DNA of 64,000 nucleotides, from the UHGV virus genome UHGV-1579991, one strand, 5' to 3'. Position 1 is the stretch's first letter; every line of letters begins with the position of its first letter. Source of the stretch: a virus. The notes under the pieces are model-generated. The model did no database searches. It had not been told where the DNA came from and saw only the letters and a program-made list of their open reading frames with translations. Below, one piece after another: positions 2,223 through 59,647 of the stretch. Made by a program: the position numbers and the translations under genes.

Positions 2223-2281
2223 TATAAAATATTGAGATATTCAATATATGTACATATAATACGAATATTCAAATTAAACAT

Positions 2282-4273
2282 ATGTCTGAAGTTAAGCATC
2301 AAGTATATGACCCTGTAGCACAATTCAAATCTGCAGAAGAAAAGGAAGCTGCAAGAGTCGTGTGGTGTTCAGAAAGTGTGCGTCGTGCATATGCAGCAGT
2401 TGACCAAGGCCTGCCATTACGGTCGAATCCCTGGTTCTTTGGCAATATTGCATTGCGTAAGCCAGGACTATTGTATAGATACTCTGACGTAGAGCTACGT
2501 GAATGGCTTAGATGTGCTTATGATATACTGTACTTTGCCAACACATACGCTACACTCATGACACCTGCAGGTGTGCGAATGCATATTACGTTGCGACCAT
2601 ATCAGAAAAAAATGCTTCGTGCGTATCAAAAGCAAAAGTACATTATAAGTTTGTGTGGACGACAAATAGGCAAAACTACGACTGCTGCAATTTTCCTCGC
2701 TTGGGCTGTCATTTTCAATCGTGAGCTCAACATAGCAGTACTTGGCGACCGCTTGGCTACATCAAGTGAAAACCTGAACAAAACAAAAGACATCATAAAC
2801 AATCTGCCATTCTTTATGAAGCCTGGTGTGTTTGTTTGGAATGGTGGAATGGTCGCATTTGACAATGGCTGCAAAATTATCACAGGTACTGCTCAAAAGT
2901 CATCACTTGTCGGTAAAACAATTCACATCTTGTATCTTGATGAGCTCGCAATTCCGCCTGCTCAGCAATCAAAGACTCTTGTAGACTATGCATTGCCCAC
3001 AATTGCATCATTGCCAACTGGCAAAGTTATCGTAACATCTACGCCATCTGGTGATAATGTGTTCAAGACTTTGTGGCTTGGTGCAATTAACAAAACAAAT
3101 GGATTCTTTCCAATTCAAGTAAACTGGTGGGACATTCCAGGTCGTGATGAAAAGTGGAAAGCTGAACAAATTGCAATTCTTGGTGAAGATGCTTTCAATG
3201 AGCAATACAACTGCGTGTTCTTGTCAGGTGCAACGTCAATTTTCAATTCAAGAGCAATTGATGATATTGCAAGACGACAACAAAAGTATGAATTTGTTGC
3301 TGATGAGCGTCTTGAATCGCTGCTCAGATTTTTCATTGCTGATTCAGATGTTGGCACTGAACCTGAGCCGCATTCATTTATGACTTGGCGTGCAGATATT
3401 GACCCAGCGACACTCAAAAATGAAACATGTATCATCAACATCGACATCGCTGAAGGCTTATCTGGCGACTTTTCTGTCATACATGTGCATCGTATAGTTG
3501 ACATTGCAAAAGATGCTGAACTTGAACTTGATGCAAGCAATCTGTATGATATGTTTGACGATGACAAAAAATCATTGTTTGCAAAAGCAGTTGAAATGCA
3601 ACGTCAAATGTCGGCAACACAAGCTCAAGATGATGACGATGATGACGATGACGACTGGTTTGGCGCAGACGATGATGTTGCTCAAGGAGTCGATGCATAT
3701 CAAGATTATGCGAATGCTGCAGTAGAAGAGATTGGCTTGTGGCGCTCAAATGTGACGTCAATTAAAGTCATGGCTCTGTATTTGCAGTTCTTAATGACAT
3801 ATGTGTTTGACGCAAACAAAACAAAGATTATCTATGAACGCAACAAATATGGTGGAGAGTTTCGTTCATATTGTTTGTCTGAACGTGCACGCAATATTGC
3901 AATTGATGAAGAGAGCTTCGTAAGCTTCCAACGAACTCTTGGTTCAGAACAACTTGCACCAGGCTGTTCAATTACGCCTGGCACCAAACCAGTGTACGTA
4001 AGACAGCTCAAAGACCTTATTGAAACTGGCAAGATTCTTGAAAACAATGCAGATACGCAAAGAGAGCTTACATACTTTGGCGGTGTCAAAGGCAAGAATG
4101 GTCATGTGTCATATCAGGCATCACCAGGCTTCCATGATGACATTGCAATGACTCTTGTATCTCTTGCAGCATTTATGGACACTCGATGCAACGATTGGCT
4201 TGAACTGCTTGATGTGTTCTACAATGGCAGCAGTCAAACAAGTTCTGATGATGACGATGATGACTGGATTTGA
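2282..4273 (+). CDS. terL: terminase large subunit
   Basis: 663 aa ORF with Walker A-like P-loop (LCGRQIGKTTTAA) followed by a nuclease-type C-terminal half; contains poly-Asp tracts (DDDDDDDDDW and C-terminal DDDDDDWI). Confidence 0.8.
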   Translation: MSEVKHQVYDPVAQFKSAEEKEAARVVWCSESVRRAYAAVDQGLPLRSNPWFFGNIALRKPGLLYRYSDVELREWLRCAYDILYFANTYATLMTPAGVRMHITLRPYQKKMLRAYQKQKYIISLCGRQIGKTTTAAIFLAWAVIFNRELNIAVLGDRLATSSENLNKTKDIINNLPFFMKPGVFVWNGGMVAFDNGCKIITGTAQKSSLVGKTIHILYLDELAIPPAQQSKTLVDYALPTIASLPTGKVIVTSTPSGDNVFKTLWLGAINKTNGFFPIQVNWWDIPGRDEKWKAEQIAILGEDAFNEQYNCVFLSGATSIFNSRAIDDIARRQQKYEFVADERLESLLRFFIADSDVGTEPEPHSFMTWRADIDPATLKNETCIINIDIAEGLSGDFSVIHVHRIVDIAKDAELELDASNLYDMFDDDKKSLFAKAVEMQRQMSATQAQDDDDDDDDDWFGADDDVAQGVDAYQDYANAAVEEIGLWRSNVTSIKVMALYLQFLMTYVFDANKTKIIYERNKYGGEFRSYCLSERARNIAIDEESFVSFQRTLGSEQLAPGCSITPGTKPVYVRQLKDLIETGKILENNADTQRELTYFGGVKGKNGHVSYQASPGFHDDIAMTLVSLAAFMDTRCNDWLELLDVFYNGSSQTSSDDDDDDWI

Positions 4274-4280
4274 TTTGTGG

Positions 4281-4338
4281 CACATCATCACAAAACAAGC
4301 CAGCAGAATTGTCTGCTGGCTTGTTTTGTGATGATGTG
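4281..4338. terminator. 58-bp perfect palindrome (27-bp arms) between convergent terL and DHFR genes; putative bidirectional terminator
   Basis: cacatcatcacaaaacaagccagcaga / tctgctggcttgttttgtgatgatgtg are exact reverse complements; located between the stop of terL (4273) and the stop of the DHFR gene (4342). Confidence 0.5.
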
Positions 4339-4341
4339 CTG

Positions 4342-4845
4342 TCATCGTTTTCGATGGAAGACTTTGAATTTGTATCGTAACGTTCTGTCATTATCTGTGC
4401 ATGTGTATAGTGCAGACTCAGATTTTTTAGTCCACATTCGCCAATTGACTGCAGGAAATCGAACGTCGCCCTCAACATAATTGTCAATCATCGTCAAGTA
4501 CATTCTGTCTGCATAAATCATTGCTTCTTCAAACAACTTAGAACCGCCGATGATAAACATGTTAGACGCAAATGCAGACTTGCAATATGCTATTGCATTG
4601 GCTAGCGTGCTAAATACGAAATAGTCGCTTGTTGGCTGCAATGTAGAGCTTATAACAATGTTAATTCTGTCAGGCAAGGGTTTGCAATTCATCGACTCAA
4701 AAGTCTTACGACCCATGATGACAATGTGATTCTTTGTGAGTTTCTTGAAGTGCTGCAAGTCATATGGAATATGCCAGGGCAAATCACCATTGCGACCTAT
4801 GACATTGTTATTTGATACTGCTGCTATGATATTGATGTATTGCAT
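4342..4845 (-). CDS. folA: dihydrofolate reductase
   Basis: 167 aa; N-terminal DHFR signature IIAAVSNNNVIGRNGDLPWHIPYDLQHFKKLT...IVIMGRKTFES. Confidence 0.85.
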   Translation of the reverse strand: MQYINIIAAVSNNNVIGRNGDLPWHIPYDLQHFKKLTKNHIVIMGRKTFESMNCKPLPDRINIVISSTLQPTSDYFVFSTLANAIAYCKSAFASNMFIIGGSKLFEEAMIYADRMYLTMIDNYVEGDVRFPAVNWRMWTKKSESALYTCTDNDRTLRYKFKVFHRKR

Positions 4846-7397: not shown

Positions 7398-7473
7398 TTG
7401 TTTTGATGCAAAATGCAAAACAATATAAAATTGTTTTGATGCAAAATGCAAAACAATATAAAATTGTTTTGAT
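7398..7473. repeat. 33-bp tandem direct repeat (about 2.3 copies), each unit containing an 8-bp inverted repeat
   Basis: Unit ttgttttgatgcaaaatgcaaaacaatataaaa at 7398-7430 and 7431-7463, partial third copy to 7473; internal ttgttttg...caaaacaa inverted repeat. Lies between the ligase stop and the Cys-rich gene start. Confidence 0.7.
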
Positions 7474-21776: not shown

Positions 21777-21842
21777 ATTGTCGAAATCTTGTTTGTGTTA
21801 TATGTACACAAAACTGCACCAGCAAAATTGCTGGTGCAGTCG

Positions 21843-25900: not shown

Positions 25901-26437
25901 TCATTTGTAGTGTTCAGTTATGTATGCAGAGCATAGCAAAACAACTGATACACAAATGACAATGTATGTTGGCGTAATCAGTGTCACATTGAATAACAAT
26001 GCAGTCAATGCGCATACTGTTACTGATATGAGTGTTGAAATGAATGCAGCATATGCACTAAACTTGCTTTTTAACAAACGTTCGATGATATATGTTGTCG
26101 CAACAGACAGTAAGACTACACATGCAAATAACAACAGCCAAGTTGAGTTTGACGTTGTCGGCTCTTCAATAAACTGCAATGTTGCTGATGGCACTTCAAT
26201 ATTGTTTGATGCTTGTAATGTGCCACTTGCAGCATCTGCGTACATCACAGTTAAGTAGTGTCGTTGAATTTCTGCTGCGTCTACTTTATAGATTCTATGC
26301 CATGCAACATCTGATATGATGTATGTTGCAGCCATAAATGCAGCAATGCATAGCATATAAGAGCCAAACTTTGCAATCGGTTTCATGCAAATATATTTTT
26401 GTTTGTATATGTACATAAAAGAGCAAGTTCTCCACAT
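25901..26437 (-). CDS. hypothetical multi-pass membrane protein
   Basis: 178 aa with several hydrophobic stretches. Confidence 0.45.
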   Translation of the reverse strand: MWRTCSFMYIYKQKYICMKPIAKFGSYMLCIAAFMAATYIISDVAWHRIYKVDAAEIQRHYLTVMYADAASGTLQASNNIEVPSATLQFIEEPTTSNSTWLLLFACVVLLSVATTYIIERLLKSKFSAYAAFISTLISVTVCALTALLFNVTLITPTYIVICVSVVLLCSAYITEHYK

Positions 26438-26764
26438 TGAGAACTTGCTCAGCTGACCTGTTACCAGGTGAAAGCGTGGTGCAGCACCTTGTGCTGCAAT
26501 GGCTATGCTGCCATCGCCATAACGGGCTGAGCATTGCCCAGCATCATTACACGACCAGCTGCATTAAGCGTACGCTTTGCTTTGTTGAAAAATTTGCCAG
26601 TTATCTGGTATCTGCACATCTATTCAAGCGACCTACTATGCAATCAAATGCCTGTCGAGCCCAATGTTTGAGCAGTTGTTTGTCAGATGCTCAGCTGACT
26701 GCAGTCTTTCTGAGTGTATCAAGTTCAGCGATTCTGCATCTTTGCTAAATGGCAATGGTTCAGG

Positions 26765-26800
26765 TGGACTCGCCGAGAATCGAACTCGGGTCTTACATAG
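26765..26800 (-). other. tRNA-like fragment (T-arm plus acceptor 3' strand only)
   Basis: Minus-strand read CCGAG-TTCGATT-CTCGG-CGAGTCC-A is a canonical T-arm plus acceptor 3' strand, but I could not find a matching 5' acceptor strand, D-arm or anticodon arm before the next tRNA. Confidence 0.3.
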
Positions 26801-26845
26801 CGCATCCTTGACTTGGTCCTGTAAACAGGGTTGTCAACATGCATT

Positions 26846-26916
26846 GCAATACGACAGGACTCGAACCTGCGACCTCGGATTGGACGTCCGCGCTCTTACC
26901 GCTGAGCTACGTATTC
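26846..26916 (-). tRNA. tRNA, anticodon uncertain (possibly Gly-UCC)
   Basis: Minus strand: acceptor GAATACG/CGTATTG (G1-G72 mismatch), D-arm GCTC-AGCGGTAA-GAGC, T-arm GCAGG-TTCGAGT-CCTGT; anticodon stem irregular (4 bp), loop CGTCCAA. Confidence 0.5.
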
Positions 26917-27009
26917 TTATCAATTGACTGCACTGCAATGCAATCAATCGTGCCAATGATATTTGACACGCATAATTGCAGTTATGCGTAACAATTCAAA
27001 TGTCATTTG

Positions 27010-27082
27010 AGCCAACTGCAGGAATCGAACCTGTAACCTGCTGAGTACAAATCAGCTGCTCTACCAATTGAGCTAAGTTGGC
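27010..27082 (-). tRNA. tRNA-Thr (anticodon UGU)
   Basis: Minus strand: acceptor GCCAACT/AGTTGGC, D-arm GCTC-AATTGGTA-GAGC, anticodon stem GCTGA/TCAGC with loop TTTGTAC, T-loop TTCGATT. Confidence 0.75.
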
Positions 27083-27164
27083 ATAAAGTCGTTGGGCCAT
27101 TGCAACCCAAACCTATCATCTTTGCCTAACCAAAGATGCAAGCGCTCTCTTACACCACGACTTG

Positions 27165-27235
27165 TAGCCGAACTTGGAGTCGAACCAAGCTTTCGAGAAT
27201 GAAAATCTCGCGTCCTAACCGATAGACGAAACGGC
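27165..27235 (-). tRNA. tRNA-Glu (anticodon UUC), non-canonical acceptor stem
   Basis: Minus strand: D-arm GTCT-ATCGGTTA-GGAC, anticodon stem CGAGA/TCTCG loop TTTTCAT, T-arm CTTGG-TTCGACT-CCAAG; acceptor GGCCGTT/TTCGGCT has two U-U mismatches at its base. Confidence 0.5.
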
Positions 27236-27419
27236 CAAGAGCAGTTCAAGTCTGCAGCATTGAACTGCGGAAACAATGCCTGTACGGGCAACCAATTGTG
27301 CAGATACAGCGACATTGCAAAATCACACCGAACCAAGTTTGTGGCTCTTCTGTCTCATAAAAACAAGTAATCATTACACTTGGCACCAATGATTTTGATG
27401 TAAAAATCGGTGTGTTACG

Positions 27420-27504
27420 CGGAGAGTAAGGGATTCGAACCCCTGGTACGTTGCCGTACAGTGGTTTTCAAGACCACCGCCATCGACCGCTCGGCCAACT
27501 CTCC
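27420..27504 (-). tRNA. tRNA-Ser (anticodon UGA), type II
   Basis: Minus strand: acceptor GGAGAGT/ACTCTCC, anticodon stem GTGGT/ACCAC loop CTTGAAA, 16-nt variable arm, T-arm AGGGG-TTCGAAT-CCCTT. Confidence 0.75.
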
Positions 27505-27697
27505 ATAAAACATTGCATAAGCATTCTTATCTCTTGATGAGGCCAAGTAGCTAATTTGGCAAGTTTGTTATATCTATCGTGACTGTTGCAGTTTGTTGTC
27601 ACTCAATACACAAAACTTTCGAACATTCATTGACAACACTGCAATATCGCTTTTTAAGCTCAGCCATCAATGTATTTATGCAATGTATAACAATTCG

Positions 27698-27779
27698 TAG
27701 CCAAACCGGGACTTGAACCCAGACTCCTAATGGAACAACATTTTGAGTGTTGCGTGTCTACCAATTCCACCATTTGGCC
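27698..27779 (-). tRNA. tRNA-Leu (anticodon CAA), type II
   Basis: Minus strand: acceptor GGCCAAA/TTTGGCT, anticodon stem CAACA/TGTTG loop CTCAAAA, 13-nt variable arm, T-arm CTGGG-TTCAAGT-CCCGG. Confidence 0.7.
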
Positions 27780-27876
27780 ATTTGCAAATGCAAGCTGTTT
27801 CACAACTGTTTGCATTTGCATTTGCATTGTTTAACACACTAAAATATGATTCATCTAATCAAAAACCAGAGAATTG

Positions 27877-27949
27877 TCGAGAATGTGCGATTTGAACGCC
27901 AATTATACGTCCCAAACGTATCGTGTTACCGGATTACACTACATTCTCG
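27877..27949 (-). tRNA. tRNA-Pro (anticodon UGG)
   Basis: Minus strand: acceptor CGAGAAT/ATTCTCG, anticodon stem ATACG/CGTAT loop TTTGGGA, T-loop TTCAAAT with a weak 3-bp T-stem. Confidence 0.6.
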
Positions 27950-27956
27950 TTAATTG

Positions 27957-28027
27957 TTGAACTGTCTGGACTCGAACCAGAAATATATCATCCAAAGTGA
28001 TATGTGTTACCATTACACCACAGCTCA
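27957..28027 (-). tRNA. tRNA-Gln (anticodon UUG)
   Basis: Minus strand: acceptor TGAGCTG/CAGTTCA (one G-U), D-arm GTG-TAATGGTAA-CAC, anticodon stem TATCA/TGATA loop CTTTGGA, T-arm TCTGG-TTCGAGT-CCAGA. Confidence 0.7.
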
Positions 28028-35361: not shown

Positions 35362-36054
35362 GTGCGGTTTACACTCGTAGATGATATGAGCATACCTTGT
35401 GCATATATGCCAAACATATATGTGTTTGCTGATGGCAATGAGTATGCAATATCTCCAATAGGTTCACAATCACTTGATTATGACGGCTCATGTATTGTAC
35501 GTATTACCAAGTCAGACTGGATTGAAATGTTTGGCGCTGGTGTTACACAAGGCAGACTTAAATTTGGCTATGGCACAAATGAGCTTGAATTTTGTGAATT
35601 GATAAGCGCTGCAACTGCTGAAGTCAAATTCGTTATTGGTTATGAACAAAGCCAGTCTGTCACTGCAACATTTAGTGATTTGCTGCATAATCCACTTGTC
35701 GCAACAAACAACAATTCTGCACAAGCAACAATTACATATACATTTAGTCATGCGACATTTAGAACAGCAGCATTTAAGATTATCGGTAATGTGACATTAT
35801 TACCAGGCGGTGATGTAAGTAACACAGCTACAATTCTTGCGCCTAATTATAGTACAACAATTAAGTACACTACGTCATCAACGCCAAAACTATTTGAGCA
35901 TTCAATGACATTTGAGCGTAACAATGAAATGCTTGAGTATGTTGGCACTGAAGTAGACAGACATGCGTATTGTCAAATGAGACGTAGAACTACGGGCTTA
36001 ACTGTATATTGTCATGTGTATATTGATGATAGCATGCTTAATATGATGAATTGA
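35362..36054 (+). CDS. hypothetical protein (GTG start)
   Basis: 230 aa plus-strand ORF beginning at GTG 35362; one of the few plus-strand genes, convergent with the large minus-strand gene. Confidence 0.45.
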   Translation: MRFTLVDDMSIPCAYMPNIYVFADGNEYAISPIGSQSLDYDGSCIVRITKSDWIEMFGAGVTQGRLKFGYGTNELEFCELISAATAEVKFVIGYEQSQSVTATFSDLLHNPLVATNNNSAQATITYTFSHATFRTAAFKIIGNVTLLPGGDVSNTATILAPNYSTTIKYTTSSTPKLFEHSMTFERNNEMLEYVGTEVDRHAYCQMRRRTTGLTVYCHVYIDDSMLNMMN

Positions 36055-36071: not shown

Positions 36072-36117
36072 GCAAAAAGAAAGCCGAACTGAAATTCAGT
36101 TCGGCTTTCTTTTTGCA
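36072..36117. terminator. 46-bp perfect palindrome; putative bidirectional intrinsic terminator
   Basis: gcaaaaagaaagccgaactgaa / ttcagttcggctttctttttgc; T-run on the plus strand and A-run upstream (T-run on minus); lies between convergent genes 35362..36054 (+) and 36133..39339 (-). Confidence 0.6.
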
Positions 36118-39452: not shown

Positions 39453-42400
39453 TCAATTACATGCTGAATGTCCGCAGTTGGTGCATCGAACACAGCCGTC
39501 AAACTTGACCATGTCACCACCGCATTCAGGACACTTTGCATACATCTTTGAGCCATCTTGAATGTGTAGTTTCAATGCGCGACCAATTGCTTTGCAGAAT
39601 GTGCCAACAGATGCAAAGCTTTTTGCAGTTTGGTCGACAATTTCACCAAGGTCGATGCCATTGCGAAGCATCGTTGAGTACAGTCGAGTAATTGTTTGCT
39701 GCTCATCTGAACCAAGACGTTCTGAGATATTGTCATAGTGTTGCAAGAATGACAAATTATCACCAAGCTTGTAGTGCTTCTTATCAGTCTTTGTGATTGT
39801 CGTTTGTTCAATGCCTTGCAACTTGTCAAATTCGTCTTTGTCAAGTTCAAATGCAAAGATTTCATAGGGTCGACCATCATCACAACCTACAAGAATACAC
39901 CACTTACGCTTATACACTGATACACAATACACTGCAGCAGGCAATACAGGTTTTCGTTTTGAGCGATGACCAGACTGCAAGACATGCGACTTATCCTTAG
40001 ACTGCTTATCATCTTTTACGAGAACACCTGCACGTGAGCCATCTCGATAAATTGTGCAACCCTTGCAGCCAGATTTCCATGCAGTCAGATAAATTTCACG
40101 AACAAGCTCTTTTGTTGCAGAGTTTGGAATATTGACTGTTACAGAAATTGATGAGTCAATGTACTTTTGCAACGCGCCTTGCAGTTTAACCTTGCCAATC
40201 CAGTCAACATCTTCAGTAGTTGCCTTATAGTATGGTGATTGAACAAGCAATTCATCAATGACTGCTTGCGAAGCATTTGACAACCAAGCTTTGATACGAG
40301 ACATTTCTGCTTCTGACCATTCAATGCCAGTATCTTTGACAAGGGTGAATTTGTCATCACCAAGCTGCACTCGTTTGCAAATCCACTGCATCAATGGGTA
40401 GTGAACTACAGCGTATTCAATGAACTTGTCACCAGTAGTCTCATCAATGAAGTTGATGTCTGCTTCATTATCAACTGCAGTAGGCTTTCGACGACGTTTG
40501 TGCAGTGGCATAAAAACAGGTTCAATGCCAGAAGTTGTCTGAGTCATCAAAGCTGTGGTGCCAGTTGGCGCAATTGTTGTTGTGTTGATGTTTCGACGAC
40601 CAAATTGTTGATAAGTTGTGATGTGCTCATCATCAATCAGTTCAGATAACATACGCTGAATGAACTTTGACTGCACATCTGTGTCATAGTCGAATATTGC
40701 AAATGAGCCACGAATCTCTGCCAAGTCAATTGACGCTTCATAAGTCGCCTTTACAAGCCATTGTTGCATAGTGACTGCGAAGTCAATTGACTCTTGTGAA
40801 CCATAGCGCAAGCCAAGCATTGCCATTGCATCGCCAAGTGCAAGAAAGCCCATGCCATATCGACGAGTATTTGTCAATTTGTCATAGACTTTATGCCACA
40901 AGTCAAGCTCAGTTTTCTTAATGTCAAATGATTCTTTGTCTGATTCAACCTTTGCAATGATTCGTTGAACTGCTTCAATTTCAAGCTGCACAAGGTCATC
41001 CATGATGACTGCACAGTCATATGTATCTTTGTAGAATGCTTCAAAGTCAAATGATGCATCAGCAGTCCAAGGATTAAGCACATATGCAGTCAAATTGCGA
41101 TGTGATAAAATGCAGCTTGCATATGCTGCAAGAGGCTGTTCACCGCACTGCCTGTTGTTTACAAATACTTGCATATGTCTGTCATTTGTATCATTGACAG
41201 CGTCAAATGACCCTACAAAAAAGTTGTGATAATCATCTACAGTGCCATTATACACATCTTCTACACCATCAAGTTCAACAGTGTGTACCCTATGATTGTA
41301 GTAATCTGCAAACTGCTTAAACTTTCTGTATGACGCATGAATAGCAGCGTCAACATTGTTAGATTTGCATTCATTTGCAAATTCTTCATAATTTGGTCGT
41401 TTGCCAAGTTTTTGCTTTGCTGCAGTATATACAAGCACTTGTTCTTTAGACCATTTTGCTTGCTGAGCTGCGTGGCCGCATTCGGCAGAACAATATGCAA
41501 CTTCTCTATAAAACCAGTGCGCCCAAAATTCAGAGCCGCAATGTTCGCAAATACGTTTAACATACACTTGTTTGTCAACAAATTTAGTGTCATAGCCCAT
41601 ATTGCGAACTTTAATTGCTGTTGCTATGCATCTGCTATCAATGCCAACTAAATCAGGATATTTAACATTAGCGCGCGTTGCACAATGACTTAAAAATGCA
41701 TCAATAGAGCCAAATGTTTCTACTAATTTATTGTACCTGTAGCCAGACCATGCAACAGTATTATTGCCTGGCGCATAGCGCATATAGTATTCTAATTCTT
41801 TGCGACTAAGGCCTCTTCCAACTTTTGCAGTGCATTGCGTAACATAGTCTACAATTGATTGCACAGTTGTATCAATATCATATCTGCCATTACGTTCACC
41901 AGAAGTAGATGCACTCATTTTAGCAGAATACTGTGCAAAACGTTCTGCATTTGCTTTAATTTTGTATATTGGATTGTTAGTGCCTCTACGTTCAAGTGCA
42001 TGTAATGCATCATGCTCTTTTTTGCTTAGTACTTGTAAGTTATTTGGGTCATTGTTTAATGAATTGCCATCGATATGATGCACTACTGTGTGTGTAGCAT
42101 CAAACTGTTCAGCATGACAGTATTCTGCTATTAAACGATGCTCAAACTTATATACACCATTATTCAACACTGCATAATATGGTGCAGATTTGCTATTTGT
42201 TTGATAGCTAAGCACTTCATCAAATGAACATTGTTGTCTTGCAATAATTGCTAAGCTATCACCATGCTGTAATTGTCGTGCTTCTTTGTATGTGCCATCT
42301 GTTAACTTAAACTTGTGATTACCTGTGCAACGAATAACATCACCAGAATCAAGTGTAACTTTGTATATTTGCACATTTGAGCCTGTTTTGCGTGGATGCC

Positions 42401-43439
42401 GCATTTTGCGTACAACTACATTATTGTTGTCATCATAGCAATACACATTAACATCATCGCCAATATCTGCAAGTTCACGTATTGTCATTGTTTGTCTGCC
42501 ATCAGCAAGCATAACTTTAGTGCTGCCAACAATGCATGGATTTGTTGAGCGCTCTTCATACATTTTACCGTATGCTTTCGAGTTCGACTCTTCCATAATG
42601 CGGTCCCAAAAGAACACGCCGGGTTCTGCAGATGCCCATACATTGTCAACAATTTTGTCAAATAATGCTTTTGCATCTGATGTCTTATGCAGCTCTTGGC
42701 CATCAGAGCCACGCCAAATATGTTCAAACTGCTGTTCTGCAAGCACTGCACGCATAAATGCATCAGTAAGCTTGATGGAAATGTTTGCACCTGTGATTTT
42801 TGTCAAGTCTTTTTTTGCGTCAATGAACTTATCTGCATCAGGATGCTCAATTGACAATGACAACATCAATGCGCCACGCCTGCCATTTTGTGCAACTTCT
42901 TTTGTCGATGTTGAAAAGCGTTCCATAAATGACACGACACCAGACGTCGTAATAGCACTGTTATGTACTTCTACGCCTTCTGGGCGAATATGCGACAAAT
43001 CATGGCCAACACCACCACGACGTTTCATCAACTGAACTTGCTCTTCATCTGTTTTGAAGATGCCGCCATATGAATCTGCATCATTGCCTATTACATAGCA
43101 ATTTGACATTGATGTGTAACCGCCAAGACCGATACCAGCCATTGGAGAACCACCAAGTACAAATCGCTTAAATGGCTCAAGCAAATATGCAAGTCGCTCT
43201 TTTGACAATACACGTTTGCCTGTCTGTTCTTCAAATTGTGATTCTATACGGTCAAATTCATTGACCCAGCGCTCATGCATATCAGACAATGAGTGTTCAT
43301 ACAAATTGTCTTTGTCATGATGCAAGTATTTTGACATGCATATGTCAGCAGCCATTGAGTCGCCCGTAAATTCATGCGTCAGTGTAGTGTGCACTTCAGC
43401 ATATTCAGGCGACCCAATTTGAATGGGACGTTTTGTCAT
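39453..43439 (-). CDS. nrdJ: ribonucleotide reductase, class II (NrdJ)-like, intein-containing precursor
   Basis: Track ORF 39453..43499; likely start at ATG 43439 (MTKRPIQIG). Exteins reconstitute the RNR active-site motif NP-CGEQPL...AYASC; C-terminal Cys-rich zinc-ribbon-like tail. Class assignment is tentative. Confidence 0.7.
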   Translation of the reverse strand: MTKRPIQIGSPEYAEVHTTLTHEFTGDSMAADICMSKYLHHDKDNLYEHSLSDMHERWVNEFDRIESQFEEQTGKRVLSKERLAYLLEPFKRFVLGGSPMAGIGLGGYTSMSNCYVIGNDADSYGGIFKTDEEQVQLMKRRGGVGHDLSHIRPEGVEVHNSAITTSGVVSFMERFSTSTKEVAQNGRRGALMLSLSIEHPDADKFIDAKKDLTKITGANISIKLTDAFMRAVLAEQQFEHIWRGSDGQELHKTSDAKALFDKIVDNVWASAEPGVFFWDRIMEESNSKAYGKMYEERSTNPCIVGSTKVMLADGRQTMTIRELADIGDDVNVYCYDDNNNVVVRKMRHPRKTGSNVQIYKVTLDSGDVIRCTGNHKFKLTDGTYKEARQLQHGDSLAIIARQQCSFDEVLSYQTNSKSAPYYAVLNNGVYKFEHRLIAEYCHAEQFDATHTVVHHIDGNSLNNDPNNLQVLSKKEHDALHALERRGTNNPIYKIKANAERFAQYSAKMSASTSGERNGRYDIDTTVQSIVDYVTQCTAKVGRGLSRKELEYYMRYAPGNNTVAWSGYRYNKLVETFGSIDAFLSHCATRANVKYPDLVGIDSRCIATAIKVRNMGYDTKFVDKQVYVKRICEHCGSEFWAHWFYREVAYCSAECGHAAQQAKWSKEQVLVYTAAKQKLGKRPNYEEFANECKSNNVDAAIHASYRKFKQFADYYNHRVHTVELDGVEDVYNGTVDDYHNFFVGSFDAVNDTNDRHMQVFVNNRQCGEQPLAAYASCILSHRNLTAYVLNPWTADASFDFEAFYKDTYDCAVIMDDLVQLEIEAVQRIIAKVESDKESFDIKKTELDLWHKVYDKLTNTRRYGMGFLALGDAMAMLGLRYGSQESIDFAVTMQQWLVKATYEASIDLAEIRGSFAIFDYDTDVQSKFIQRMLSELIDDEHITTYQQFGRRNINTTTIAPTGTTALMTQTTSGIEPVFMPLHKRRRKPTAVDNEADINFIDETTGDKFIEYAVVHYPLMQWICKRVQLGDDKFTLVKDTGIEWSEAEMSRIKAWLSNASQAVIDELLVQSPYYKATTEDVDWIGKVKLQGALQKYIDSSISVTVNIPNSATKELVREIYLTAWKSGCKGCTIYRDGSRAGVLVKDDKQSKDKSHVLQSGHRSKRKPVLPAAVYCVSVYKRKWCILVGCDDGRPYEIFAFELDKDEFDKLQGIEQTTITKTDKKHYKLGDNLSFLQHYDNISERLGSDEQQTITRLYSTMLRNGIDLGEIVDQTAKSFASVGTFCKAIGRALKLHIQDGSKMYAKCPECGGDMVKFDGCVRCTNCGHSACN
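41148..42536 (-). mobile_element. intein (Hint domain plus HNH homing-endonuclease domain) inside the RNR gene
   Basis: In-frame 463-aa insertion from Cys at 42536 (CIVGSTKVMLADG) to ...VFVNNRQ at 41148, followed by the +1 Cys of CGEQPL. Contains HNH motif HHIDGNSLNNDPNNLQVLSKKEHDALH and intein block-F-like VYNGTVDDYHNFFVG. Confidence 0.75.
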
Positions 43440-43504
43440 TGTAACAGTGCATTTAAGTGTTTTAACAGTTTTATGTATAAATTGTACAACAATGGGCAAA
43501 ATTT

Positions 43505-43558
43505 TGCATCAACTCAAAACAGCCAAGCAATTCATTGCTTGGCTGTTTTGAGTTGATG
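43505..43558. terminator. 54-bp palindrome (26-bp arms); putative terminator or operator immediately upstream of the RNR gene
   Basis: gcatcaactcaaaacagccaagcaat / attgcttggctgttttgagttgatgc are exact reverse complements, separated by 2 nt; between the stop of 43565..43870 and the RNR start. Confidence 0.5.
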
Positions 43559-43564
43559 CTGCGC

Positions 43565-43870
43565 TTAGTATTGCTTGTATTGTATCTGCATTGCATCATA
43601 CAAAAGCAGTCGAACATCTTTGTTCATTGTAAGCTTTGACATTGTAGTTTCATGTTTGTCTTTGCCAATGTTAAAATTTACAATGGTGCTACCTACTGCA
43701 GACATCAATTGCAGAAAATTCAACTTTGTCATTGCTTTGCCATTATAACGTATCTGCTGTTGTTTGATAAGTTCGTCCATGTAGTCAAACAGCTGCCAAT
43801 TTTCTACATTGTTAGCTTTGACCGCTAATTCAAGTGTTTGACGATACTTGCTAAGCTTGTTTGTTGCCAT
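43565..43870 (-). CDS. hypothetical protein
   Basis: 101 aa ORF. Confidence 0.45.
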   Translation of the reverse strand: MATNKLSKYRQTLELAVKANNVENWQLFDYMDELIKQQQIRYNGKAMTKLNFLQLMSAVGSTIVNFNIGKDKHETTMSKLTMNKDVRLLLYDAMQIQYKQY

Positions 43871-46890: not shown

Positions 46891-47050
46891 AGGGATGGCG
46901 AACTGTACACATTGTACACATTGTACACACTTATATTGTATGTGTTTGTATATGTATTTTAACAGGCATTAGCAAACAATACAAAAATGCAAAATGAAAG
47001 TGGCTCAGATGTATATCTGGGCCACTTTCATTTGTCATATACGTTGTCTA

Positions 47051-59610: not shown

Positions 59611-59647
59611 AAAAAAGAACCGCTTGCAATCTAATTGCAAGCGGTTC
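59611..59647 (-). terminator. intrinsic terminator downstream of the putative capsid gene
   Basis: aaaaaa-gaaccgcttgcaat-cta-attgcaagcggttc: 14-bp perfect stem, 3-nt loop, followed on the minus strand by a T6 run. Confidence 0.65.

Follow-up and report, generated by a model that had tools for sequence, protein, structure and literature searches.

Terminators that serve two convergent genes at once form a known class and show higher conservation than terminators acting in one direction only (PMC5381666), and the terminators of phages have also been surveyed (PMC10204088). Other mechanisms are known at such junctions. In E. coli, convergent gene pairs are described as undergoing collision-assisted bidirectional termination within a zone that holds stem-loop-forming sequence (Ju et al. 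2019, as far as it is cited in bioRxiv 10.1101/2022.10.23.513370), and this preprint presents its own termination sites as unlike canonical intrinsic terminators. On the other hand, inverted repeats are subject to a mutational process of their own, in which template switching between the two arms homogenises them, lengthens the stem and inverts the spacer (PMC8604942, PMC8794818).

A long inverted repeat between two convergent phage genes is compared here with these systems. It lies in a stretch of 64,000 nucleotides of the UHGV virus genome UHGV-1579991 (hereafter, the window), which comes from an uncultivated phage of ~175 kb, putatively of the gut according to some sample and record labels, whose close relatives are metagenomic contigs of 116-181 kb; the closest cultured terminases, those of Chryseobacterium phages, show only ~40% identity. 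Like the two-way intrinsic terminators (PMC5381666), the repeat has a GC-rich hairpin between an A-tract and a T-tract, each strand reading as a hairpin plus a U-run; it follows directly after the stop codons of the converging genes, and its core is more conserved than the surroundings. In this haplotype, the pairing predicted from the sequence runs 6-8 bp past the tracts, resulting in 28-bp perfect arms at the long end of the range. In contrast with the E. coli collision-assisted sites, a canonical hairpin with a U-tract is found on both strands, and collisions are therefore not required as an explanation. The sib/tI region of phage lambda offers a further parallel, with an inner terminator hairpin within a longer duplex that forms in read-through RNA only, but the extended pairing of our repeat is not conserved among near-identical phages, and lambda sib is a one-strand element. 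Finally, spacer inversion with intact arms, clustered changes that create complementarity and stepwise stem growth are all as expected from template switching at quasipalindromes (Ripley model; PMC8604942, PMC8794818), although those papers deal with yeast genes and RNA genes, whereas we have natural haplotypes of a phage terminator, for which we infer the direction of change.

The Inverted Repeat and Its Flanking Genes

A repeat search of the window delimited two arms of 28 nt each (4280-4307 and 4312-4339) that are 100% complementary, separated by the 4-nt spacer ATTG between 4307 and 4312, with a total span of 60 bp. The initial annotation had described a 58-bp perfect palindrome at 4281-4338. 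The perfect repeat is real and extends one more pair at each end, but its centre is not self-complementary, and the element is a perfect inverted repeat of the hairpin type rather than a strict palindrome. It takes up almost the whole of a 68-bp intergenic gap, beginning 6 nt past one stop codon (4271-4273) and ending 2 nt short of the other (4342-4344). The two flanking genes, already annotated as a convergent terminase and DHFR, were confirmed as such by Pfam matches to a T4-type terminase large subunit (Terminase_6N; 2282-4273, plus strand; PF03237, E = 2.4e-22) and to a dihydrofolate reductase (DHFR_1; 4342-4845, minus strand; PF00186, E = 1.2e-50; PHROG 316).

A perfect repeat of 28 bp exceeds chance by far, as the longest perfect stem in 20 first-order Markov simulations of the window was 12 bp. 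The arm sequence, searched with up to 3 mismatches, matched only the two arms of 4280-4339, and none of 100 shuffles gave any match; the additional copies that the annotation had suggested looking for are absent from the window at that threshold. The exact 28-bp form was also found in the independent assemblies L057 and L058, and it is therefore no assembly artefact of the window. When folded as RNA, the repeat reaches −59.1 kcal/mol on the plus strand and −56.8 kcal/mol on the minus strand (z-scores of −11.0 and −12.7, respectively). A scan of the repeat against Rfam 15 gave no family at the gathering threshold, only generic matches to long hairpins such as miRNA precursors (36 bits versus a threshold of 110). 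The RNA fold contains an extra outer helix of 6 bp around the repeat, with codons of the acidic tail of the terminase (GATGATGAC, 4255-4263) on one side and GTCATC from around the DHFR stop codon (4341-4347) on the other; this helix is probably incidental.

With regard to transcription, nearly all genes of the window are on the minus strand. The terminase is a lone plus-strand gene amid minus-strand neighbours, and the DHFR gene is the final one of a long minus-strand series, among whose members are an NAD-dependent DNA ligase and an exonuclease; two transcription units therefore meet head-on at the repeat. The top promoter match within the first 20 kb, a sigma-70-like TTGAGA-17-TATAAT (2232-2260, plus strand; 11/12), precedes the terminase start codon by 22 nt and probably marks where the transcription unit that the hairpin would end begins. 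The motif ATGTACATATAAT at this promoter match was also recovered in a motif search. A recurrent motif, TACATATA[AC]AAACA, occurs at 21807, 26414, 32729, 39386, 46955, 14414 and 15496 on the minus strand and at 2250 on the plus strand, just 3′ of terminators and 5′ of genes, and is a candidate phage promoter consensus. Its palindromic variant ATATGTACATAT is present in the 59-bp divergent gap ahead of the terminase gene, overlapping the TATAAT −10-like hexamer.

A Probable Terminator Read from Both Strands

From its outer end inwards, each arm is made of an outer segment (GCACATCATC), an A-rich tract (ACAAAAC) and a GC-rich stem (AAGCCAGCAGA), and the RNAs from the two strands are identical save for the loop. 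The core hairpin, AAGCCAGCAGA-ATTG-TCTGCTGGCTT (4297-4322), consists of a 4-nt loop on a stem of 11 bp, 6 of them G-C, and truncated RNAs folded with −18.1 kcal/mol on the plus strand and −18.0 kcal/mol on the minus strand. After the stem GGC, the terminase transcript continues into the U-tract UUGUUUUGUG (4323-4331, plus strand), which is U-rich in all relatives. Correspondingly, the A-tract of the plus strand at 4288-4296 is the U-tract of the DHFR-operon transcript, again UUGUUUUGUG on the minus strand, and ACAAAACAA at this tract is invariant in 10/10 related sequences. The U-tract is broken by a G and makes no clean U-run; the 10 nt past the full 11-bp stem (GTTTTGTGAT) have 6 T on each strand. 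As each U-tract is an A-tract when read on the opposite strand, the tracts are complementary to each other, which lengthens the apparent stem to about 20-22 bp. In this way, an 11-bp GC stem plus a U-tract of ~9 nt with its mirror A-tract account for ~20 of the 28 bp of the arm. The site was missed by a simple terminator scanner, since this tool follows the stem over its whole length (with no more than 20 pairs counted) and seeks the T-run past that end.

All the features of a bidirectional intrinsic terminator that can be looked for in sequence were found at this locus, namely a stem-loop, U-tracts on both strands, a position after converging stop codons and a core kept in relatives. We therefore consider, with good confidence, that the repeat is a bidirectional Rho-independent (intrinsic) terminator common to the two converging transcription units, at which transcription is predicted to stop. 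RNA polymerase would arrive either from the terminase on the plus strand or from the DHFR end of the minus-strand operon and, in both directions, would transcribe an 11-bp GC-rich stem-loop (AAGCCAGCAGA, loop and UCUGCUGGCUU) followed by the U-rich UUGUUUUGUG. The hairpin would fold behind the polymerase while the weak rU:dA hybrid occupies the active site, leading to transcript release, and the released RNA would retain a stable 3′ hairpin protecting it from exonucleases. The last 6-8 bp of pairing would fall outside the working terminator, past the expected 3′ end of the terminated transcript. From the established mechanism, a polymerase stopping in the U-tract never copies the far outer arm, and these last 6-8 bp should therefore have no part in terminating that transcript.

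Conservation in Relatives

Relatives of the intergenic region were collected from IMG/VR, ENA, Logan and JGI assemblies, giving 10 sequences and 8 haplotypes with flanking DNA 0-7.5% different. The perfect stem has 28 bp and the loop ATTG in the window, L057 and L058. It also spans 28 bp, with one mismatch beside the loop, in L055 and L056, which have lost the DHFR gene, and 27 bp in L001, where the outermost pair is broken. Shorter stems are found in L002 and L043 (22 bp, with the loop flipped to CAAT), L059 (18 bp, with the left outer arm replaced), L060 (16 bp, with the U-tract improved to UUGUUUUUUAU) and L012 (15 bp, with a 3-nt deletion in the right arm). Loop flips aside, ACAAAACAAGCCAGCAGA (4290-4307) and TCTGCTGGCTTGTTT (4312-4326) are invariant across the 10 sequences save for the mismatch of L055/L056, with the 11-bp core stem unchanged in 9/10, and, as the core does not vary, there are no compensatory double substitutions.

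The deletion in L055/L056 (3493-3645 of these contigs versus 4342-4845 of the window) leaves a remnant of ~37 nt of the DHFR 3′ end beside the palindrome, and DHFR is therefore dispensable in this phage group. These two carry the most widely observed terminase haplotype (protein P0124, found in 46 blocks of the collection). The terminase protein cluster of the group numbers 41 members.

The outer parts of the arms behave in a very different way from the core. The outer left arm GCACATCATC (4280-4289) pairs with the outer right arm GATGATGTGC (4330-4339) only in the clade of the window; the left one is variable or replaced in relatives, and the right one reads GATGCCTTGC, GATGACTTGC, GATGCATTGC or ATAATGCCTTGC in other haplotypes. 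Only 0-3 of the 6 outermost pairs are formed in L002, L043, L012, L059 and L060, even though their flanks are merely 5-7% diverged. The 27-28-bp form is restricted to a single shallow clade, with at most 2.2% divergence over the adjacent 800 nt, and lineages ~5% or more distant all carry stems of 15-22 bp. The outer 6-12 bp of each arm, not being kept in close relatives, are therefore dispensable, in agreement with the initial view that the stem is longer than termination needs. As for the conservation of the palindrome as a whole, the core hairpin and the U-rich tails are kept in the 10 sequences, but the length of 27-28 bp belongs to one clade only. Moreover, the tails of L059 and L060 are still U-rich, each on its own strand, though their mutual pairing is lost. 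In these haplotypes, a GC core with unpaired U-rich tails is the pattern that termination at the RNA level would predict, and not the one predicted by a DNA-binding site or by a required long duplex.

The same comparison bears on the best-surviving alternative, a retroregulator in the style of lambda sib/tI. RNA terminated at the inner hairpin would then carry a short protective structure, and read-through RNA, for example under late antitermination, would form the 28-bp duplex; in the next step, RNase III would cut this duplex and expose the terminase or DHFR message to 3′-to-5′ decay. A duplex of 28 bp is sufficient in length for RNase III. The outer arms are indeed past the expected release point, which would confine their pairing to read-through RNA; the uninterrupted duplex of −57 to −59 kcal/mol could form from either strand, and another palindrome of the window (43506-43559) has a similar extension of 9 bp past its A/T tracts, kept in three haplotypes. 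Nevertheless, such close relatives should have kept a processing site if it were functional, and the outer pairing, present in one shallow clade, is absent or degraded in five other haplotypes at a flank divergence of 5-7%, which makes this proposal improbable despite its mechanistic appeal.

Beyond these close relatives, the only one at an intermediate distance (L013, with a 74%-identity terminase) was left out, since its contig breaks off within the intergenic region. At terminase identities of 54-57%, relatives have an unrelated hairpin at the same position. L015 combines convergent genes with a 16-bp perfect A-tract/T-tract palindrome, and hairpins of 12-13 bp occupy the same position in L017 and L019. 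Chryseobacterium phage MA9V-1, the nearest relative in culture (40% identity), has a gap of 7 bp between its converging genes and no hairpin in it, and a megablast of the region against cultured phages gave no match. When metagenomes were scanned for the pattern of the 11-bp stem, 30 loci were recovered, among which L043 was the only homologue; the other 29 were unrelated, most of them obvious terminators. The sharing of an 11-bp stem plus T-run with unrelated metagenomic contigs is read as chance.

Other Hairpins and Predicted Terminators in the Window

The repeat is not an isolated case in this DNA. The window contains 28 perfect hairpins whose stem reaches 9 bp or more, versus ~5 expected, the majority of them intergenic, and ~12 further hairpin-plus-T-run terminators were found; hairpins followed by a U-run are clearly the predicted terminators of this phage. 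At tandem junctions of the minus strand, the T-run is usually stronger on that strand, and the asymmetry is clear at 6 of 9 sites (25853, 26421, 52609, 57151, 59617 and 63038), with 6-8 T on the minus strand versus 1-5 T on the plus strand; the terminator at 59617 reads GGTTC-TTTTTTGC. The exceptions to this bias are 21813, 39399 and 50197. In contrast, the convergent junctions at 4280, 36072 and probably 46987 have a T-run on both strands.

Hairpins at convergent junctions are long palindromes of A-tract, stem and T-tract with arms of 22-28 nt, and 4280-4339 is the longest of the set. The sister element at the convergent junction 36072-36116 has perfect 22-nt arms and a 1-nt loop, and the one at 46987-47038 has 24-nt arms that are 88% complementary. 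A third sister, with perfect 26-nt arms (43506-43559), lies upstream of the ribonucleotide reductase gene; all three share the order A-tract, GC stem and T-tract. The 43506-43559 element has the two-way layout yet stands between two minus-strand genes, and a symmetric layout is therefore not strictly exclusive to convergent junctions. Most terminator T-runs have GC or GCA at their end (TTTTGCA), which is why the long palindromes start with GCA and finish with TGC; this ending may belong to a consensus of the terminators or promoters of the phage.

Repeats and structured RNAs of other kinds were also observed. Downstream of the DNA ligase gene, at 7403-7471, there are two tandem copies of a ~33-bp unit (TTGTTTTGATGCAAAATGCAAAACAATATAAAA), each of which holds an AT-rich 9-bp hairpin, CAAAACAAT-ATAAA-ATTGTTTTG. 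A minus-strand cluster of seven tRNAs (Gly, Thr, Glu, Ser, Leu, Pro and Gln) extends over 26846-28027, and these 7 tRNAs are the only Rfam matches of the whole window at the gathering threshold. ARAGORN reported a permuted tmRNA at 26412-26854, which Rfam did not confirm at that threshold.

Loop Flips and Probable Template Switching

Comparison of haplotypes revealed that the loops of the long palindromes are inverted from one phage to another. Both L002 and L043, which was assembled independently, have CAAT, the exact reverse complement, in place of the loop ATTG of 4280-4339, with the adjacent arms unchanged. Similarly, at 43506-43559 the window and contig 152288 share the loop TC (43532-43533), for which contig 149023 has GA, and at 36072-36116 the loop base A of the window (36094) corresponds to T in both relatives. 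Loop flips thus occur in 3/3 long perfect palindromes of the window, the two sisters having been compared in relatives L050-L053. An origin of the flips as artefacts of de Bruijn graphs was rejected as the main explanation, as the two assemblies with CAAT (L002 and L043) are independent and differ in their outer arms, and ATTG was found in at least 6 others.

A second kind of change affects the arms. The clade of the window differs from all other haplotypes by a clustered replacement in the right outer arm, (A/C)CT to ATG, which makes this arm the exact complement of the left one, and in the window a single additional change relative to L001 closes the outermost pair. Both signs of a template-switch hotspot, that is, spacer inversion with the arms unchanged and a clustered arm change towards complementarity, are therefore present at this locus. 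The loop inversion in these haplotypes shows that the two DNA arms interact during replication, as would happen by template switching. The arm change would run from imperfect to perfect, as parsimony suggests for a population that is recombining and mosaic. The template switching that would make the outer arms perfect is the same process that would invert the loop in sister haplotypes. The outer 6-8 bp are most likely a by-product of it (quasipalindrome correction and extension) and no selected feature. Altogether, the excess of stem length is lineage-specific and most likely best explained by a known mutational mechanism.

Palindromes and Gene-Cassette Boundaries

Two of the three long palindromes of the window coincide exactly at one end with the limit of DNA homology to IMG/VR relatives, at 43559/43560 and at 36072/36073. 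The gene next to the first one (43565-43870, minus strand) is replaced by ~178 bp in L052 and L053, and the gene next to the second (35362-36054, plus strand) is replaced in L053. In this comparison, terminator hairpins coincide with gene-cassette boundaries. A homology breakpoint at 4280-4339 was looked for in the relatives and none was found; the DHFR deletion of L055/L056 begins ~37 nt inside the gene, away from the palindrome. Another difference between genomes concerns the ribonucleotide reductase gene itself (39453-43499, minus strand), interrupted by an intein with an HNH endonuclease domain according to Pfam, especially at 41147-42534. The intein-coding stretch has no DNA match in two IMG/VR relatives, where the gene has ~1073 codons versus 1348 in the window, and from this comparison the intein appears either present or absent, or replaced, between genomes.

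These observations have to be weighed for a site acting at the DNA level, whether a cruciform or the target of a dimeric protein, that would serve as a recombination hotspot, a replication origin or a terminase recognition (pac) site. Loop inversions reveal arms that interact during replication, the two sister palindromes are exactly at homology breakpoints, and the single-stranded DNA hairpin of the repeat folds with −36 kcal/mol. However, the outer arms, which are what would make the site long and specific, are its least conserved part; 4280-4339 is away from any homology breakpoint in relatives, has no second copy in the window and has no iterons or other origin-like features near it, and the conserved GC stem with U-rich tails, even when unpaired, corresponds to the needs of RNA termination and not of DNA binding. 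Moreover, T4-type (Terminase_6N) headful packaging is not known to use a long palindrome downstream of the large-subunit gene. A DNA-level role is thus very unlikely. The initial annotation had taken the length of the palindrome as a possible sign of a protein-binding or recombination site; a protein-binding or dedicated recombination site is not supported, since ~20 of the 28 bp correspond to the two-way terminator, the rest is clade-specific and no breakpoint is seen at 4280-4339. What stands of the recombination idea is the interaction of the arms in replication, seen as the loop inversion between haplotypes. Least probable of all is a mobile or repeated palindromic element (REP- or MITE-like) lying between the genes by chance, for which the arms do resemble those of 43506-43559 (GCA-CATCA-C-CAAAAC-AGCC-AGCA; an alignment score of 12, reached by 14/5000 shuffles), but this resemblance is not significant after correction for the 66 pairs compared and is mostly in the tract-plus-GCC layout common to all terminators of this phage, and the repeat is at one locus in the window at up to 3 mismatches, at the same position in all relatives and without target-site duplications. 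The two palindromes were likewise rejected as copies of one repeat family, their similarity being weak and non-significant after multiple-testing correction.

Returning to the bidirectional terminator, the data from the three long palindromes allow a more tentative proposal: the long palindromic terminators of this lineage might be frequent sites of template switching, with loops flipped and arms homogenised and lengthened (16, 18, 22, 27 and 28 bp), and also preferred junctions of cassette exchange.

Concluding Remarks

For the annotation of this phage, the repeat provides the predicted 3′ ends of a terminase-only unit, running from promoter to terminator, and of a long operon for replication and nucleotide metabolism. 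A palindrome as striking as one of 28 perfect base pairs needs no special function. The haplotype series is a small example of how selection preserves no more than the U-tracts and the core hairpin in a two-way terminator, and of how template switching flips the loop and can make the remaining stem 'too perfect'. Neither of these points is new in principle, and a natural series of loop flips and stem growth at phage terminators is a modest by-product of the analysis. If the tentative link of template switching and cassette exchange to these palindromes were true, mosaic evolution would not only produce terminator hairpins but also be driven by them.
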